Assembly (NCBI GenBank): GCA_012520575.1
Contig: JAAYOB010000015.1
Span: 40,705-104,704, forward strand
From: Candidatus Stramentimicrobium fermentans
Lineage (GTDB): Bacteria; Atribacterota; Phoenicimicrobiia; Phoenicimicrobiales; Stramentimicrobiaceae
Direction of reading: 5' to 3'
Length of the DNA stretch: 64,000 nucleotides
Under the pieces are notes generated by a model. The model was not told the DNA's origin and did no database searches. It was given only the letters and a program-made list of their open reading frames with translations. How positions within the stretch are numbered: position 1 is the first letter of the stretch; each line of letters starts with the position of its first letter. Both the position numbers and the translations under genes were made by a program. Below are positions 12,822-46,962 of this stretch, one piece after another.

Positions 12822-13090
12822 CTATAAAACAAAAAACTGCGGCAGTCGCAAAACTGCCGCAGCCGATTTCCTGCAAAGTAAGATGTTTATTTCTCCATAA
12901 ATCGAGAACAAATAGACAGCAAACACGTTTAAGCAGGTCTCCTGACTCGCGTATCATAAGCTCTCCGCACTGTCTTCTCAGGATTGCTCCCAATGACTGA
13001 CTTTCGTCGCGTGCGGTGCCTCCACGCATACAGTGGCGGTACCGTCCCGGATTTTAACCGGGTTCACTATTCTCCACCAATTCCTGTCAA
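12822..13090 (-). promoter_or_regulatory. Cobalamin (AdoCbl) riboswitch with an intrinsic-terminator expression platform
   Basis: Minus-strand RNA carries GTGAACCCGGTTAAAATCCGGGACGGTACCGCCACTGT, then GGGAGCAATCC, then a B12 box GAGTCAGGAGACCTGC. A terminator hairpin CTGCGGCAGTTTTGCGACTGCCGCAG plus a T-run follows (plus-strand 12822-12862). Confidence 0.85.
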
Positions 13091-13133
13091 AATTGGTGAC
13101 ACTTAAACGGTGTATTCTATTCAACTGTCATTT

Positions 13134-13508: not shown

Positions 13509-13527
13509 AAAAAAAATAAATATCGAA

Positions 13528-13775
13528 TATTAAATTTTACAGATCACGGAAGCTGTTGAGAATACAGCACAGCCCCGCTACTGTGATAAGGGACTGATTG
13601 GACATAGGCCACTGAAGCAATTCGGGAAGGCGTCATAATCGGGATGATCTTTAAGTCAGGAGACGGTCTATAAAATTCAAAATGGCTTACTTCGAGGGAG
13701 GTAGGTGCTTTTTTTTGTGCGCTTTTAAAGCCTCTATCTAAAATACGAAGTATCGATAGAGGCTTTTTTATTATT
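13528..13775 (+). promoter_or_regulatory. Cobalamin riboswitch with terminator platform
   Basis: Motifs GTTGAGAATACAGCACAGCCCCGCTACTGT, GCCACTGAAGCAATTCGGGAAGG and the B12 box AAGTCAGGAGACGGTC. A terminator GCCTCTATC...GATAGAGGC plus a T-run lies just before the RBS AGGAGG of the 13793 gene. Confidence 0.8.
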
Positions 13776-26204: not shown

Positions 26205-26402
26205 AGAACACACCCTTTGACCACGAAAGAGTGTAACGGGTTCCCAACAGGCAGGTCTCCTGGCTTGAGGCTGTCTAATTGCTGCGCCTTCCCAAAACTT
26301 TTGTTCCAGTGGCGTTATGCAGCTTTCGGTACCTTTTACAGTAACGGGCTTGCGGTGGATTTGCACCACACTTCCCTTAACCTGTCAGGATAATATATTC
26401 AG
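26205..26402 (-). promoter_or_regulatory. Cobalamin riboswitch with terminator platform
   Basis: Minus-strand RNA carries GGTGCAAATCCACCGCAAGCCCGTTACTGT, then GCCACTGG, GGGAAGGCGC and a perfect B12 box AGCCAGGAGACCTGCC. The terminator is ACACTCTTTcgtggtcAAAGGGTGT plus a U-run. Confidence 0.85.
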
Positions 26403-39670: not shown

Positions 39671-39708
39671 AGCAGTCCTTAGGGGGAACCCTCCCCCTAA
39701 GGACTGCT
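39671..39708. repeat. Perfect 17-bp-stem palindromic hairpin between convergent addA and the HesB-like gene (probable bidirectional terminator or stability element)
   Basis: AGCAGTCCTTAGGGGGA / loop ACCC / TCCCCCTAAGGACTGCT. A T7 run lies immediately 5' on the plus strand. Confidence 0.6.
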
Positions 39709-39718
39709 ACATACGTTA

Positions 39719-40027
39719 TTAGCAGCAGCTGTCGTAAGAATCCCAATTCTGATAATAGACTCGAAAACCTTTTGAAAATAAGTAGCTCTTGTAATCAATA
39801 GTCAAATGTTTGATAGAATCAACTAATTTTTGATGCAAGATAATTTCCAGATCGTCTACATTTAAGCTTATATCATCTTCTTTTTGCTCATCCAGAGCAA
39901 TGCCAAGTCTGGGACCGCCTCAGCCAATACCGGTTATTAACACACGGATTTTTTTATCAGATGATTCCTGCTCCTGCAGCATATTCTTCAACTGTTCAGC
40001 TGCTTTTTCAGTAATATTTATTTCCAC
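39719..40027 (-). CDS. HesB/IscA-like protein with an in-frame TGA at the conserved Cys position (candidate selenoprotein). Not in the ORF track because the TGA splits it into sub-60-aa pieces.
   Basis: My translation from the GTG at 40027 (RBS AAGGAG; the in-frame ATG at 40045 is an alternative start) gives VEINITEKAAEQLKNMLQEQESSDKKIRVLITGIG-TGA-GGPRLGIALDEQKEDDISLNVDDLEIILHQKLVDSIKHLTIDYKSYLFSKGFRVYYQNWDSYDSCC. It aligns with IscA (ITLSDSAAARV...GLRLGVRTSGCSGMAY...GFKFTNPN...CGCG). The Sec machinery genes lie about 1 kb away. Confidence 0.7.
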
Positions 40028-40440
40028 TTTCTTGCTCCTTATCATTACTTTTAACTTAGCACTACATAATAGTAATTGATTTCCAATATATCATAACAGG
40101 AAAAAGCATAATGTCAACAAAAGCTCTTGCCATGAGTATCGCAAACATTCATTTTTTGAGACTGCTAAATGTAAATAATGGTGGAATTCATAATTCTATC
40201 GGGTTTAGTTTTTATTATCCTATACCACCTGACTGTAGGATAAGTTCTTCTGAAAACATAGGGGAAAAATGGGTAAAAAATAATTGAAAAAGAGAGTAAA
40301 AAATTTGGCTTGGTTTTTTAAAAAGGTGGTATAATTAATCATTAATTAAAAATCTTTATAAAAGGTATGATAGAGATTTTTATTTTTAATTTATGACAGT
40401 CCGATAAAGTTTAAAAATTAAGACGGAGGGAGGTGAAAGA

Positions 40441-41097
40441 ATGAAAAAAAAGAAAAACTACTTAGTAATTCTTATTATCCTCTTAATTTCTTTGCTGATG
40501 AGCGGATGCGCAGTCCCCTTCTTTTCAGGAAACGAACCGGTATACATAATTTCCAAACCGGTCAAAATTGCAGTTGTTGGAAATCCTTATAGTTATCAGG
40601 TTGTAGTAGAAGATGATGGAAAAACGGAATTGACCTTCAGTCTCACTGTTGCTCCGGAAGGAATGGAAATTAACAGAGGAACCGGATTAATAAATTGGAC
40701 ACCGACTGCCGAACAGATGGGAGAACATGAGGTAGGTATAGTAGTGAGAGATGGCTGGTACATGGATACACAGAATTATTCTCTTACGGTAAGCACAAAA
40801 CAGTTGAGTTCAATTACTGTAATTCCTTCCAGCATGTCTTTTACTAAAGCTGGTGATACAAAAACAATAACATCTATTACTGCTAAATATAATGATGGTT
40901 CCAGTAAGACAGTCGATAAAGCCGCTTGCACTTTCGTATCTAACAATCCCAGTATTGCCACAGTCGATACAGCAGGTAAGGTAACGTCTAAAGCAAAAGG
41001 GAATACCACCATTACCGTCAGCTATACCGATAATGGTATAACTGAGAGTGCCAAAATTGCTATTACTGTTACTATTGCACCCACCGGCGGTGGCTGA
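40441..41097 (+). CDS. Lipoprotein with a C-terminal bacterial Ig-like (Big_2) domain
   Basis: Signal peptide plus lipobox LLMSGCA. SITVIPSSMSF...ATVDTAGKVTSKAKGNTTITVSYT. Confidence 0.6.
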   Translation: MKKKKNYLVILIILLISLLMSGCAVPFFSGNEPVYIISKPVKIAVVGNPYSYQVVVEDDGKTELTFSLTVAPEGMEINRGTGLINWTPTAEQMGEHEVGIVVRDGWYMDTQNYSLTVSTKQLSSITVIPSSMSFTKAGDTKTITSITAKYNDGSSKTVDKAACTFVSNNPSIATVDTAGKVTSKAKGNTTITVSYTDNGITESAKIAITVTIAPTGGG

Positions 41098-41153
41098 CGT
41101 AGGTAATAAACCTGATAGTTTATCAGGTATGAAAAACTATATTATAACAGGGT

Positions 41154-41249
41154 GGGAGTGGATAGGTTCTGGTGGACCTTGCGGACTTCAAATCCGTGGG
41201 CGGTAATTTATCATTACCGCGGTGGGTTCGATTCCCACCCCTCTCGCCA
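41154..41249 (+). tRNA. selC: tRNA-Sec (selenocysteine tRNA, anticodon UCA)
   Basis: GGGAGTGG-AT-AGGTTC/TGGT/GGACCT (6-bp D stem with 4-nt loop). Anticodon arm GCGGA-CTTCAAA-TCCGT identical to E. coli selC GGACTTCAAATCC. Long variable arm GCGGTAAT-TTATC-ATTACCGC. T arm GTGGG-TTCGATT-CCCAC. 3' G-CCA. The acceptor stem pairs imperfectly in my hand fold. An intrinsic terminator follows. Confidence 0.8.
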
Positions 41250-41263
41250 TTTTAAACTGAAAA

Positions 41264-41316
41264 TACCCATTCTGGACCGGAAAAGTTTTCCGGTCTGGAA
41301 TGGGTTTTGTTTATTA
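41264..41316 (+). terminator. Rho-independent terminator after selC
   Basis: CCCATTCTGGACCGG...CCGGTCTGGAATGGG, a 15-bp stem with two G-U pairs, followed by TTTTGTTTATT. Confidence 0.65.
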
Positions 41317-41434
41317 TTAAGGCTCTATATGGTAGAATATATCATTATTGAAAGATTTATCGGAAGAAATGCGCCTGGAGTTTTTACTAAATCTATTAAC
41401 AAATATTTTTAAAAGAGGAGAATAAATCTCTATT

Positions 41435-42865
41435 TTGGAAAAGAATCGTAAAGATAACCGTACAAACAATATGCATATTCAATTAGCTCAGCTTCCCAGT
41501 GTGGAGGAAGTTTTACAACAAGAAGAGCTGCGCTTATTAAGCGGCCGTTACTCTCGAAGAATGATTACCCCTCTGGTCAGAGAAGTGTTGGCGGAAGAGA
41601 GAAAAAGAATCAGAGCCGGCGCTCTGCCCCCAACAATTTTCGATATCATAAAGAGCTGCACTACTTTAATCGAACAAGAATATCAATCCCTGATTAAGCC
41701 TGTTATTAACGGAACAGGGGTAGTTTTGCATACCAATTTAGGCAGAGCAGCCTTAGGACAGACCTTGTTTGACGATGCACTGCCTGCTTTAACCGGCTTT
41801 AATAATTTAGAATATAATCTTTGGGATGGGCAACGGGGTAAAAGGGGAGAATTTGTAGAGAAGATGCTGTCAGTTTTTAGCGGGGCGGAAAATGCCCTTA
41901 TCCTTAACAATAATGCTGCTGCTGTTTTTCTTATCTTAAAGGTATTGGCTAAAGATAAAGAGGTCATTATCTCCAGAGGCGAGCTGGTACAAATAGGCGG
42001 CGGATTCCGCATTCCGGATATTTTACGGGAAAGCGGAGCTATACTCCGGGAAGTAGGGACTACCAACCAGACTACTATAACTGATTATCATGATGCCATT
42101 ACTGAAAATACAGGTTTAATCCTGAAAGTCCATCAGAGTAATTTTGCTTTGGAAGGTTTTACCCGGTCGGTTGATATTAAAGAATTAAAAATATTGGGGA
42201 AAAAATATAAATTACCAGTAGTGGCAGACCTGGGCAGCGGTGCTTTTCTGCAGACTGAGCAGTTTGCTTTAGCCCATGAACCCATGGTGCAGGAAATGGT
42301 ACGGAGTGATGCCGATTTAGTCTGCTTCAGTACCGATAAATTATTAGGCGGTCCCCAGGGCGGAATTATTTGCGGGAAATCAGAGTATATTAACCGAATC
42401 AGAAAAGACCCTCTCTATCGTACCTTTCGGGTAGGTAAACTTACCCTATGCCTGCTGCAATCCACCATATTATACTATTTACAGGAAAGAGCTATAGAAG
42501 ATTTACCGCTCTGGAGAATGATCTCTGTTCCTGCCGAAGATATTAAAAAAAGATGTATGCGTTTAGCTCGCAGCTTAAAAAAGAGAGGGATTCCTGCCTA
42601 TATCAGTGAGGGAGTATCTCTTATCGGCGGCGGTTCCTTACCGGGGAAGACCTTGCCTACCTATCTCTTAGGTCTTAAAATAGAGAAAGATGTAGCAGAA
42701 TTAGATAAAAGATTAAGATTATCCGATCCTGCCGTTTTAGGGAGAGTAAAGGATGGACATTTATTCTTTGACCCCAGAACAATCGAACCCCATTATGACA
42801 AAAAATTAGTGGAACTCATTCAATCTGCCTTTTATCAGAAATATAATGAAGAAGAGGTCAGATAA
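41435..42865 (+). CDS. selA: L-seryl-tRNA(Sec) selenium transferase
   Basis: GTGVVLHTNLGRA, HQSNFALEGF and the PLP-lysine region FSTDKLLGGPQGGIICGK. The track start is TTG at 41435. The in-frame ATG at 41471 (MHIQLAQLPSVEEVL) is an alternative start. Confidence 0.85.
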   Translation: MEKNRKDNRTNNMHIQLAQLPSVEEVLQQEELRLLSGRYSRRMITPLVREVLAEERKRIRAGALPPTIFDIIKSCTTLIEQEYQSLIKPVINGTGVVLHTNLGRAALGQTLFDDALPALTGFNNLEYNLWDGQRGKRGEFVEKMLSVFSGAENALILNNNAAAVFLILKVLAKDKEVIISRGELVQIGGGFRIPDILRESGAILREVGTTNQTTITDYHDAITENTGLILKVHQSNFALEGFTRSVDIKELKILGKKYKLPVVADLGSGAFLQTEQFALAHEPMVQEMVRSDADLVCFSTDKLLGGPQGGIICGKSEYINRIRKDPLYRTFRVGKLTLCLLQSTILYYLQERAIEDLPLWRMISVPAEDIKKRCMRLARSLKKRGIPAYISEGVSLIGGGSLPGKTLPTYLLGLKIEKDVAELDKRLRLSDPAVLGRVKDGHLFFDPRTIEPHYDKKLVELIQSAFYQKYNEEEVR

Positions 42866-42871
42866 TTTGCT

Positions 42872-44740
42872 ATGGTTATTTTTGGTACTGCCGGACATAT
42901 CGACCATGGAAAGACCAGCGTCATTCAGGGACTAACCGGTATCGATGCCGATCGCCTGCCGGAGGAAAAATCGAGAGGCTTGACTATTGACCTCGGATTT
43001 GCCTGGCTGGAAACCACCCGGGGCGAAAAAATAGGAATAATCGATGTGCCGGGCCACGAAAATTATATTCGCAATATGATTACCGGTATAACCACTGTAG
43101 ATGCCTTTCTGTTAGTCGTTGATGGCAAAGAAGGATGGATGCCTCAAACGGAAGAGCATTTTCAGATTATCAGATTATTAGATATCAATTATGGCTTGGT
43201 AATTATTACCAAAACAGATTTAGCCTCACCGGAGCGTATAGCAGAAACGGAACAGCAAATAAAAGATAAGATTACCGGTATAAATAAGTTTAATATTCCT
43301 ATTCTTAAGTTCAGTATTAATGATAAAGATAGTATAGATCTGTTAAGGCATGAGGTAGAGAGTGTCAGCAGTCTCATTCCCCTTAAAAAAGACCTTAACA
43401 AACCCCGTCTTTTTGTGGACCGGGTTTTTGAGATAAAGGGGAGCGGTACCGTAGTTACCGGAACATTACTTGATGGGAATTTGTATCAGAATCAATCAGC
43501 AACACTTTTTCCATCAAAAAAAACGATTCGCATCAGACAGATACAAAGCTATAATGATTCGGTAGAAAAAGCGATTTTAGGCAGCCGGGTAGCGCTAAAT
43601 CTTTCCGGTATCAAAAAAGAAGAAGTTCGGAGAGGGGATTTGATTTCCGGTCTCAAAGCACTTCCTTCGGGGAATTTTCTGGATGTCTCTTTCGCCCTTC
43701 TCTCCCGGGAGAATCCTTTTCGTCTGAAAAATGGTACTGAAGTCGAATTTATTTCACATACTAAAATTTTGAGAGGGACTATTATCTTCTCACAAAAAGA
43801 AATGTTGTCCGGGGAAAAATCTTATGTCCAGCTGCGCTTTAAAGAACCGCTCTGGCTCATAATAGGTGATCACTTTATTATCAGACTGCCAGGCTCCAAT
43901 GAGACCATAGGTGGCGGAAGAGTGCTCGCTCTGCAGGAGGATAAGCATAGTTTTCATAATCCTTATTGGGAAAAATGGCTGGAAAGCAGGTCTAAACTGG
44001 ACATTAACTCACTTATCCTCAGTGAATTAGAGAAATATAAGACTATCAAAAAAGGCCTCTTGTTATTGAACAGCCCTTTTTCTCAAGTAGAAATCTATCA
44101 GCATTTGGATAATTTAAACGAGAATAGCAGCCTGTTCTTAATTGATGACCGGGTGGTGAATAATCAATTCTGGAATGAATTAATCAGCCGAGTCTTAGCT
44201 AATTTAAAACAGAAGCACAGTGATTATCCTCTAAAAAAGGGATTTCCTTCAATACAGCTGAAAAATGAATTGCCCGGTTTGTCAGAAGAACTGTTTGATA
44301 ATTTATTAAAATATTTGGTGGAAGAAAATAGTATAGCAGTGAAGGATGGAATGGTTTCTTTGTTCGAACATACTATTGAACTGACGGAATCAGAAGAGAA
44401 AGTGAGAGAGGAAATTTTGCAATATCTCAATGAGAACATCAACAGCCTGCCCACCGAGAAGGAGTTGCAAAATGTTTTTTCCAAAAATATAGAGATGATT
44501 AACTACTTAAAAGAGATGGGAGAAGTTATAAAATTAGCAGATGATATCTGTCTGACACCGGCAATATATGAAAATATGAAAGATGAAATCGTAGCTTTTT
44601 TAAAAAAGAATAAATCTATCACTATTGGCCAGGTCCGTGATTTGCTGCATATCAGTCGAAAATATATTGTACCGCTCTTGACCAGAATGGACGAAGAGGG
44701 TATAACCAAAAGAATTGGCAATGAGAGAACATTATGCTAA
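42872..44740 (+). CDS. selB: Selenocysteine-specific elongation factor
   Basis: GTP-binding motifs GTAGHIDHGKT and DVPGHENY. 622 aa with C-terminal winged-helix region. Confidence 0.85.
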   Translation: MVIFGTAGHIDHGKTSVIQGLTGIDADRLPEEKSRGLTIDLGFAWLETTRGEKIGIIDVPGHENYIRNMITGITTVDAFLLVVDGKEGWMPQTEEHFQIIRLLDINYGLVIITKTDLASPERIAETEQQIKDKITGINKFNIPILKFSINDKDSIDLLRHEVESVSSLIPLKKDLNKPRLFVDRVFEIKGSGTVVTGTLLDGNLYQNQSATLFPSKKTIRIRQIQSYNDSVEKAILGSRVALNLSGIKKEEVRRGDLISGLKALPSGNFLDVSFALLSRENPFRLKNGTEVEFISHTKILRGTIIFSQKEMLSGEKSYVQLRFKEPLWLIIGDHFIIRLPGSNETIGGGRVLALQEDKHSFHNPYWEKWLESRSKLDINSLILSELEKYKTIKKGLLLLNSPFSQVEIYQHLDNLNENSSLFLIDDRVVNNQFWNELISRVLANLKQKHSDYPLKKGFPSIQLKNELPGLSEELFDNLLKYLVEENSIAVKDGMVSLFEHTIELTESEEKVREEILQYLNENINSLPTEKELQNVFSKNIEMINYLKEMGEVIKLADDICLTPAIYENMKDEIVAFLKKNKSITIGQVRDLLHISRKYIVPLLTRMDEEGITKRIGNERTLC

Positions 44741-44776
44741 GAAGAATGGATTATAGAAATAGAGGGGGTGAGATGG

Positions 44777-45829
44777 ATGTCCGATAAGAAAGACAATAAG
44801 AAGAGATTAATGCAGCTCGTTACAGCGGCAGGGTGAGCGGCTAAATGGAGCTATCAGGACCTCGGTGAGGTTCTTAAAAAGATGAATCAAATTTCAGACC
44901 ATAATTTATTAAGCAGTTTTGAAAACAATGAAGATGCAGCGGTATACCGTATCAATAGCGATACGGCCATTATCTTTACTACCGACTTTATCACTCCTGT
45001 CGTGAACGATCCATTTACCTTTGGCCAGATTGCTGCTGCCAATGCTTTAAGTGACGTTTTCGCCATGGGCGGCAGGCCCTTAATGGCTTTAAATATCGTC
45101 TGCTTTCCTGAAAATAGATTAGAAGAGTTAGAAAAAATTGTTAGCGGTGGGCTGCAAAAGGTAAAAGAAGCCGGAGCAATATTGGTGGGGGGACATAGCC
45201 TGAAAGATTCTGAGCCCAAATACGGTCTAGCAGTCGTGGGGCTAGTGCATCCGGATAAAGTAATCTGCAATAATAATTGTCAGGAGGGAGATAGAATAAT
45301 ATTAACAAAGCCACTGGGAACCGGTATTATCTCCACCGCTTTAAAGAGTGAATATTTATCCGAAAATGAAGCTCAGGAAGCAATAGGCTGGATGTCAAAA
45401 CTCAATGCTGTTTCCGATGATATTTTAAATTTGGCTATAAACAGTATGACCGATATTACCGGATATGGTTTTCTGGGACACCTCAGTGAAATGGTCCAGG
45501 GCAGTGATGTCGGTGCAGATATTGAGGTTGATAAAATTCCCTTGTTAGCAAATACTGTTGGGCTTGCTCAGGAAGGAGTTATACCAGGGGGAAGTTTCGC
45601 TAATCAGGAAATATTCTCCTGCGGGGTGGAAAAGAAAATTGAGCTGGAACCGGCCAAAGAGATAACACTTTACGATGCTCAAACCTCAGGCGGATTACTC
45701 ATCTCCATTGCCCAAAGAGATGTCGAGCAGGCACTGGACTTGTTGCACAAGGAAGGATTCACTGAAAGCAGTGTGATTGGCAAGATTAGAAAGATAAATA
45801 TAAATGAGAGAAGAATAAGCCTGATATAG
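44777..45829 (+). CDS. selD: Selenide, water dikinase (selenophosphate synthetase) with in-frame UGA (Sec) at 44834-44836. The track shows only the part after the TGA (44882-45829).
   Basis: The upstream in-frame read is MSDKKDNKKRLMQLVTAAG-TGA-AAKWSYQDLGEVLKKMNQ..., aligning with E. coli [24 protein letters not shown] (Sec at Cys17, Lys20 conserved). RBS GAGGGGG lies 8 nt before the ATG at 44777. The downstream hairpin AGGACCUC-GGU-GAGGUUCU at +20 to +38 is a SECIS candidate. Confidence 0.8.
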
Positions 45830-45906: not shown

Positions 45907-46962
45907 ATGATAAGAAACAGGTTTGTGATAATAGTATCGATAATTCTGATTATCCTTTTAGGGATAGGATTTCTAATAAGCAGAATAACCAACAAACTCA
46001 CCGGTCCGCCGGTACTAGCTGTCTCGGAAGAAGTGGGTGATTTGGGAATAATACAAGCAGACCAGCCGCAAGCCCATATCTTTACCCTTAAGAATGAGGG
46101 AGGAGAAACCCTGATTATTGAAAGAGTGCAGACATCATGTGGTTGTACCGCTACCGTATTGTCGGATAAGAAACTGCAGCCCGGTGAAACTACTGAATTA
46201 GAGGTGAGTTTCAATCCTAAAGGTTATCAGGGGGACATTTCTCATTCTGTTTATATCTACAGTAATGACCCGGAGAATCACAGGAGGAAGCTTGTTATCA
46301 AAGGCACTGTAGAGGTCATACCTGCCCCTAAGATTCATTTATCAACAAATCAATGGGATTTTGGCTTACTTTCATCCGGCGATACCTCCTCATTTTCGGT
46401 ACTAATAACCAATGAAGGGCAATTAGACTTAGACATTGAAGATATAGCTTTACCCGAACAAGTTTTCTACCAGCAGGACGAATTAGAACTTCCGGTATCA
46501 TTAGCCCCGGAAGAGGAATTAGAAGTAAAATTTGTCTATGATACCGAAAGACAAGCCCTAGGAGTGGTAAGAGAATATATCCGCCTAACTAACAATGATC
46601 CTGACCACAAGAATATTACCATAAGAATAGAAGGGTACATAAAGGAAAGAGAGGAAACGATTACCATTCGTCCTCTGCAAGGGTTTACAATTACCGGGGA
46701 AAAAGATTATCAGATTTCTGATGCAAAATTCTTAATCAGTAATAATAGCCATAATACACTTAAGGGAATTATTGCAGGCTCCTCTCAGGATTATATTACA
46801 CCACTTATTAAAGAGCTCAATCTATCCCCCGGTGAAGAGAAAGAGATTACGCTTAGAATTGAACAGCAAAATTTGGCGAAACTTGATTTAAATGAAATCA
46901 TCCGGGAATATATTTATTTCAGAGTTCCAATACCGTTAGAGATAGGTTTTGATCTTCCCTAA
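45907..46962 (+). CDS. Membrane-anchored DUF1573-like beta-sandwich repeat protein
   Basis: N-terminal TM helix, then the TSCGCTA motif typical of DUF1573. Confidence 0.45.
   Translation: MIRNRFVIIVSIILIILLGIGFLISRITNKLTGPPVLAVSEEVGDLGIIQADQPQAHIFTLKNEGGETLIIERVQTSCGCTATVLSDKKLQPGETTELEVSFNPKGYQGDISHSVYIYSNDPENHRRKLVIKGTVEVIPAPKIHLSTNQWDFGLLSSGDTSSFSVLITNEGQLDLDIEDIALPEQVFYQQDELELPVSLAPEEELEVKFVYDTERQALGVVREYIRLTNNDPDHKNITIRIEGYIKEREETITIRPLQGFTITGEKDYQISDAKFLISNNSHNTLKGIIAGSSQDYITPLIKELNLSPGEEKEITLRIEQQNLAKLDLNEIIREYIYFRVPIPLEIGFDLP

Follow-up and report, generated by a model that had tools for sequence, protein, structure and literature searches.

Does a 64-kb stretch of DNA from an uncultured bacterium carry all genes dedicated to selenocysteine (Sec) insertion, and is the enzyme that donates the selenium itself made by reading through a UGA codon? 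The stretch in question, called the window in the following, comprises 64,000 nucleotides (nt) of contig JAAYOB010000015.1 of Candidatus Stramentimicrobium fermentans. Here, the gene for tRNA-Sec (selC) is followed on the same strand by selA, selB and selD, which lie side by side in the order selC-selA-selB-selD. Judging from the sequence, it is very likely that this locus represents a complete Sec insertion gene set in which selD itself is UGA-recoded. The proposal has three components: a Sec insertion system with its four dedicated genes clustered, a SelD that is a selenoprotein, and a hairpin at 44856-44874 serving selD as its SECIS (Sec insertion sequence) element. The original prediction had claimed the complete four-gene locus, and the identity of all four genes was confirmed, by ARAGORN and Rfam for the tRNA and by NCBIfam and Pfam for the proteins. 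Chance can be excluded as an explanation because both the TGA and the hairpin are kept in relatives. The locus is real and functional-looking, and anaerobic bacteria are already well known to have this arrangement; selC is commonly found clustered with selA and selB (PMC5330540).

The listed open reading frame (ORF) of selD begins at 44882. An ATG at position 44777, preceded by a ribosome-binding-like stretch (GGGGGTGA), shares its frame, with a lone TGA (44834-44836) between the two. It had been proposed that the listed ORF starts only at about residue 36 and that the true N-terminus is reached through this TGA. Frame and alignment confirm the proposal: selD (selenide, water dikinase) occupies 44777..45829 on the plus strand, a 350-residue frame including Sec20. 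With U replaced by C, the extended protein scored 354.7 bits against TIGR00476 (cut-off 125), and the match begins at residue 10, upstream of the listed ORF. The extended SelD can also be aligned to the structures of E. coli SelD (3u0o) from residue 6 and of Aquifex SelD (2yye) from residue 10. The motif AAG-U-AAK, encoded around the UGA at 44834..44836 (plus strand), then matches GAG-C-GCK in the former and SSG-C-AAK in the latter. This places U20 in the Gly-rich loop, on the catalytic Cys (Cys17 in E. coli) and three positions ahead of the catalytic Lys, in the context G-C-x-x-K; assignment of the U to the Cys17/Lys20 active-site loop thus held in both alignments.

Alternation between Sec and Cys at this position was followed in a sample of 166 related loci overall, which are not phylogenetically independent. 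In a first set of 153 loci, for which 72 selD loci were collected from species-representative genomes and 80 from metagenomes, each anchored by tblastn on the conserved core, the Sec-codon column contained TGA in 20 and TGT or TGC in 130 cases, and was unplaced in 2. The closest relatives were not returned by the metagenome scan and were obtained via exact-protein look-ups; 13 further selD loci, fetched via the truncated public proteins most similar to the SelD of the window, carry TGA without exception (13/13). The homologous residue is Cys, never Trp or Gly. In ten close relatives, substitutions upstream of the UGA numbered 32, 14 and 77 at codon positions 1, 2 and 3, and those from the UGA to codon 36 numbered 12, 14 and 52. 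This bias towards third positions on both sides shows that protein-coding constraint runs across the UGA. Since relatives have L or F at position 36, Met36 is not a conserved start. Orthologs starting at the listed Met had been named as an observation that would speak against the extension; instead, the upstream region is coding in all close relatives and Met36 is variable. A sequencing error as the source of the TGA is ruled out, as the identical TGA is present in three independent assemblies of the same organism (ENA, NCBI, JGI).

SelD proteins with Sec are well documented. Sec is encoded by about 19% of prokaryotic selD genes, invariably at this position (PMC4561486), the two bacterial selenoproteins with the widest distribution are FdhA and SelD, with SelD in second place (PMC1794560, PMC13188914), and UxxK is a listed signature motif of Sec-SelD (PMC9312934). 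The Sec-SelD of Haemophilus influenzae, Aquifex aeolicus, Clostridia and Deltaproteobacteria have the same single Sec in an N-terminal Gly-rich loop with UxxK. As in the family represented in the window, Cys is interchangeable with Sec in their orthologs, and a SECIS hairpin lies within the coding sequence just 3' of the UGA. There is no difference in kind between these and the selD of the window, which comes from an uncultured, Cloacimonadota-like bacterium of digesters, and nothing at the locus departs from the known picture of Sec-SelD and of sel gene clustering.

The third component concerns the element that would direct Sec to the UGA. The predicted 8-bp hairpin with a GGU loop at a SECIS-like position is indeed present and conserved: this candidate SECIS hairpin of selD, AGGACCUC-GGU-GAGGUUCU, extends over 44856..44874 (plus strand), with its stem beginning 19 nt after the UGA. 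An alignment was made of the stretch between the UGA and +60 in 16 distinct selD sequences of the Sec type. All 8 pairs were formed in 100% of cells, whereas in a slid control with the 3' strand shifted by 1-3 columns only 20-56% were paired. Double changes are seen at pairs 24-40 (GC/AU) and 27-37 (UA/CG), and a third pair alternates between G-U and G-C. The C-G/U-A switch links a synonymous change of an Asp codon (GAC/GAU) to a Val/Ile replacement (GUU/AUY) on the opposite side of the stem. A distant Sec-type selD (L085; 57% identity with the tblastn core query) has the same hairpin in the same register. More distant selD genes of the Sec type, from Geomonas, Cetobacterium, Dehalococcoidia and others, differ in the peptide encoded in this region, and a hairpin is still found 14-30 nt after the UGA. 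For the region +10 to +54, the mean folding z-score was -2.7 in 23 Sec-type genes versus -0.5 in 81 Cys-type genes (Mann-Whitney p = 7e-11, for sequences that are not phylogenetically independent).

The hairpin was also compared with the bacterial SECIS consensus (Zhang and Gladyshev model) in the form given in PMC13188914, and it lies within all of the published constraints stated there. The apical loop has 3 nt (3-9 nt required), the upper stem 8 bp (4-16 bp), and the first two loop positions are GG (at least one G). The distance from UGA to loop is 27 nt (16-37 nt), and the minimum free energy of the hairpin folded alone amounts to -9.0 kcal/mol (-7.5 kcal/mol or lower).

Some observations weigh against the proposal and have to be kept in mind. 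Folding of the region had been suggested as a check in the original prediction; the 8-bp hairpin did form, but the 55-nt fold of the window's own sequence was not significant against shuffles (z = -1.03). As the single-sequence fold is undecided, the case for the hairpin rests on the comparative data. Furthermore, the hairpin sequence falls within the part of selD that codes for a conserved peptide (DLGE[VI]L), and covariation is confined to two pairs, reflecting few independent events. No Rfam SECIS family matched the selD hairpin, or that of a neighbouring HesB/IscA-like gene (see below), when 39700-45000 was searched with E-values up to 10; only chance matches to unrelated families were returned. 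We take this as a gap in the library rather than as evidence against a SECIS. Finally, the tRNA-Sec encoded in the window does not have the canonical 13-bp stack of acceptor and T stems (8/5). Its 12-bp stack narrows the tRNA-Sec subtype and does not exclude its identity as tRNA-Sec.

The first three of these points raise the question if the UGA encodes Sec while the 8-bp hairpin is a by-product of the conserved peptide and SelB recognises another element. The peptide encoded by the hairpin, the invariance of five of its 8 pairs with double changes at two pairs only, the weak z-score of the window's own fold and the missing match to Rfam SECIS models could all be accounted for in this way. Nevertheless, we regard it as improbable: whenever the Asp codon changes synonymously (GAC/GAU), the Val/Ile change occurs in the other strand and the pair is kept, a regularity set against the low pairing of the slid controls. 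The L085 gene preserves hairpin and register at only 57% core identity, and the more distant Sec-type genes with other peptides have a stable hairpin after their UGA, which is missing in Cys-type genes. Geometry and GG loop also fit the bacterial consensus. The hairpin is therefore best viewed as the putative SECIS of selD.

Far less tenable is the view that the TGA acts as a real stop, in which case the SelD starting at Met36 would be truncated or a pseudogene product and the 19 upstream codons would be there by chance or as a leader ORF. It is true that all public gene calls of this SelD start at Met36 (P0001, 315 aa) and that TGA is a normal stop elsewhere in the window. However, the codons upstream of the TGA are kept as protein, with their third-position bias, and Met36 is replaced by L or F; a selD pseudogene was rejected. 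Also, the catalytic loop G-[C/U]-x-x-K would be absent from a SelD starting at Met36, the very position of the TGA is occupied by Cys in 130 homologs, and a complete Sec machinery adjoins the TGA-containing gene. Just as little speaks for a UGA decoded as something other than Sec, be it by near-cognate read-through or through reassignment to Trp or Gly as in codes 4 and 25: some public gene callers put W at the TGA when translating the HesB-like neighbour (P0121, P0122), but TGA terminates 14 of the 43 long ORFs in the window, indicating a standard genetic code without reassignment, homologs show Cys as the standard counterpart of Sec and never Trp or Gly, tRNA-Sec, SelA and SelB are encoded beside selD, and a conserved hairpin is found at SECIS distance 3' of the UGA.

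Turning to the insertion machinery itself, selC (41154..41249, plus strand) encodes a tRNA-Sec with anticodon UCA, G73 and the CCA end. ARAGORN reported it as the sole tRNA of the window (tRNA-SeC, anticodon tca, 41153-41248), and Rfam model RF01852 matched 41154-41245 with 73.3 bits (gathering threshold 47). Rejection of the tRNA would have counted against a Sec locus; both finders accepted it, and the hallmarks that had been recognised by hand (6-bp D stem, UCA anticodon, long variable arm and GCCA end) were all recovered. In the consensus fold of 7 relatives, the D stem has 6 bp, including one compensatory pair, and a 4-nt loop (UGGU). The anticodon loop is CUUCAAA (7 nt), the variable stem has 8 bp, and G73-CCA is encoded. 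Between T loop and G73 there are 12 nt, resulting in an acceptor/T stack of 12 pairs. Position 6, in the 5' acceptor strand, is left without a partner; the base there is U in this tRNA and C in the Atribacterota relatives. The tRNA-Sec of E. coli likewise has a D stem of 6 bp, a long variable arm, a UCA anticodon and G73, but it forms 13 acceptor/T pairs, where the tRNA of the window has 12 stacked pairs plus an unpaired base.

In functional Sec-decoding genomes, bacterial tRNA-Sec have been described whose acceptor/T stem has 12 bp and in which an acceptor nucleotide is often bulged (PMC5330540). In this paper, Santesmasses et al. (2017) named a "Cloacimonetes type" of tRNA-Sec, citing Mukai et al. 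(2016). The 12-bp variant is thus already described, and it fits the taxonomic neighbourhood of the locus. With the 12-bp variants, which comprise the Cloacimonetes type and bulged 7/5 types, the tRNA of the window has in common the 7 nt between T stem and G73, the single unpaired nucleotide in the 5' acceptor strand and the location beside selA and selB. The Cloacimonetes type, as characterised there, is devoid of one linker nucleotide, whereas the tRNA of the window keeps a two-nucleotide linker (AU) and has its extra base (U6, or C6 in the Atribacterota relatives) inside the acceptor stem. It looks more like the "5a bulge" class of that paper.

Directly 3' of selC lies a terminator-like element (41265..41315, plus strand), found by a terminator scan and composed of a perfect 19-bp stem, a 3-nt loop and the T-rich stretch TTTGTTTATT. 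On the basis of this hairpin between selC and selA, which was called by a consensus scan, selC is probably transcribed separately from selA-selB-selD, such that the four genes would not form one transcript.

The gene for L-seryl-tRNA(Sec) selenium transferase, selA, follows at 41435..42865 (plus strand), starting either with a TTG at 41435 or with an in-frame ATG at 41471. Its product scored 528.7 bits against TIGR00474 (cut-off 267.9), has the Pfam domains SelA and Se-cys_synth_N, the latter being the N-terminal tRNA-binding domain, and carries the motif FSTDKLLGGPQGG. The expected pyridoxal phosphate (PLP) lysine motif is present in the translation as FSTDKLLGGPQ; its lysine presumably binds PLP, by analogy with K295 of E. 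coli SelA. No SECIS-like element was seen 5' of selA, where the sequence was inspected by eye only. The adjacent selB (42872..44740, plus strand) encodes the Sec-specific elongation factor, as had been predicted. It scored 353.8 bits against TIGR00475 (cut-off 242.25), and Pfam detected GTP_EFTU, Beta-barrel_SelB, SelB-wing_2 and SelB-wing_3 (59 bits). The C-terminal winged-helix domains 2 and 3 are the predicted SECIS-binding part. The sel system of E. coli (selC, the selAB operon and selD) has the same four components with the same domain content: the N-terminal tRNA-binding domain and the PLP lysine of SelA as well as the winged-helix domains of SelB are shared by the proteins of the window. 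In E. coli the sel genes are scattered and SelD has Cys17, whereas in the window all four genes are adjacent and selD uses Sec.

If the locus operates along the established pathway, an ordinary seryl-tRNA synthetase would charge tRNA-Sec with serine. SelA would then convert Ser-tRNA(Sec) to Sec-tRNA(Sec), using selenophosphate provided by SelD. SelB·GTP would bring Sec-tRNA(Sec) to a ribosome positioned at the UGA and the SECIS hairpin, with the hairpin bound via the C-terminal winged-helix domains of SelB. Synthesis of the selenium donor would thereby need Sec insertion that is already running, creating a self-reinforcing loop. A divergently placed HesB/IscA-like selenoprotein gene two genes upstream would be a second local client of the Sec system.

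This HesB/IscA-like gene (39719..40045, minus strand) was identified in a read-through scan. Located two genes away from selC on its upstream side, on the other strand and outside the coordinates covered by the original prediction, it comprises 108 codons with an in-frame TGA at 39922-39920 in the context TGIG-U-GGPR. With U replaced by C, its product matched Pfam Fe-S_biosyn (PF01521) with 33 bits (threshold 26.3), the match spanning the TGA. The best NCBIfam match was IscA_HesB_Se (NF038090). Neither curated family cut-off was reached (NF038090, 73.5 versus 85; TIGR01911, 45.2 versus 66.35), on which basis we assign the protein by sequence as a divergent member of the HesB-like selenoprotein family. 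Aligned to H. influenzae HI1723 (2apn; E = 4.8e-11), its U falls on the Cys of GGGCSG. When the HesB-like protein was used as query in a word-indexed homolog search, the only matches were two near-identical proteins that have W at the UGA; Cys homologs were not among them, so that the Sec/Cys alignment rests on Pfam and 2apn. HesB-like proteins are an established selenoprotein family of bacteria (PMC1794560; PMC9312934), included among those of anaerobes in PMC1794560. The protein encoded here agrees with the family (TIGR01911/NF038090) in its small A-type Fe-S carrier fold and in having Sec where such carriers have their first conserved Cys. At its C-terminus, the protein of the window has a single conserved Cys, compared with the CxC of IscA.

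A candidate SECIS hairpin, UUGCUC-UGGAU-GAGCAA (39884..39900, minus strand), folds 19 nt after this UGA. The TGA, the TGIG-U-GGPR peptide and the hairpin at +19 nt are kept in six distinct relatives. The hairpin is invariant among these six and therefore offers no covariation, and its single-sequence fold was not significant against shuffles (z = +0.41). Upstream of the gene we found an 11/12 match to a sigma-70 promoter with extended TG. After its stop codon, between the HesB-like gene and the convergent gene for an AddA-like helicase, there is a 15-bp GC-rich inverted repeat (39671-39708). An A run flanks this repeat on one side, but a T tract is missing, so that it was not picked up by the terminator scan.

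As to further selenoproteins in the window, a codon-usage scan for read-through candidates yielded the HesB-like gene as the only credible one; it missed selD because the part of selD upstream of the TGA is short. A scan combining UGA, hairpin and open frame gave nothing credible beyond selD and the HesB-like gene, and six off-frame UGA-plus-hairpin candidates within other genes were rejected.

By sequence, the closest relatives of the locus are from Cloacimonadota and Atribacterota of anaerobic digesters. The truncated SelD is 100% identical to proteins on metagenome contigs from anaerobic digesters. No selD of the species-representative genomes found exceeds 65% identity. The nearest named genome by SelD is Candidatus Cloacimonas sp. 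SDB (65%), followed by SelD proteins of Atribacterota with about 56-59% identity. Relatives with SelD identities as low as about 67-70% have the same gene order, namely AddA, HesB-like (minus strand), Ig-domain lipoprotein, selC, selA, selB, selD and DUF1573. The DUF1573/HYDIN-like Ig-domain gene (45907-46962, plus strand, in the window), which has no evident link to selenium, comes after selD in all of the syntenic relatives examined.

Both local selenoprotein genes have 19 nt between UGA and stem and a small GG-containing loop. It is conceivable, if rather doubtful, that the lineage has its own variant of Sec decoding, made up of a bulged 12-bp tRNA-Sec and SECIS elements of fixed geometry (19 nt, small GG-containing loop). 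With SelD itself a selenoprotein, the module would also be self-dependent, with Sec needed to make Sec. Since this tRNA type and this selD hairpin are found in Atribacterota as well, the whole Sec module may have moved between phyla.

Two relatives showed additional features. The locus L164 (1-9800) contains two copies of selD, each followed by genes for a YedE-like Sulf_transp protein, TusA and a cysteine desulfurase-like aminotransferase, and the second set is in turn followed by a Se_S_carrier gene. This arrangement resembles a module for selenium handling duplicated in tandem. In the relative with 89% identity (L156, 7750-8771), an ArsP_1 permease is called as two adjacent ORFs of 160 and 180 aa with a 4-base overlap, for which a frameshift, an assembly error or a recoding site may be responsible.

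Elsewhere the window shows nothing out of the ordinary: there are AddAB-like helicase-nuclease genes, genes for anaerobic cobalamin synthesis, corrinoid importers, efflux systems and a PAS-GGDEF-HD protein. Three cobalamin riboswitches were detected with 91-101 bits, at 12915-13121 (minus strand), 13523-13686 (plus strand) and 26233-26400 (minus strand). They precede a CbiK-led operon, in which cobalamin synthesis genes are combined with those for a corrinoid ABC importer, as well as two other operons whose first genes encode BtuF-like binding proteins.

Current annotation does not represent either selenoprotein gene correctly. In the window and in all close relatives, public selD gene calls are 288-328 residues long and without the catalytic loop, the call in the window having 315 residues from Met36 (44882). 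The HesB-like gene is missed, reduced to a stub of 35 residues or given Trp at its UGA. The main value of the present analysis is the corrected annotation of selD together with the newly recognised HesB-like selenoprotein gene; correct calls also add two pairs of Sec codon and SECIS for training selenoprotein predictors. The locus opens no new question; it is one more case of a known self-dependent arrangement, in which the enzyme providing the selenium donor is itself a selenoprotein. Correct calls of these genes mark this uncultured digester lineage as a user of Sec.

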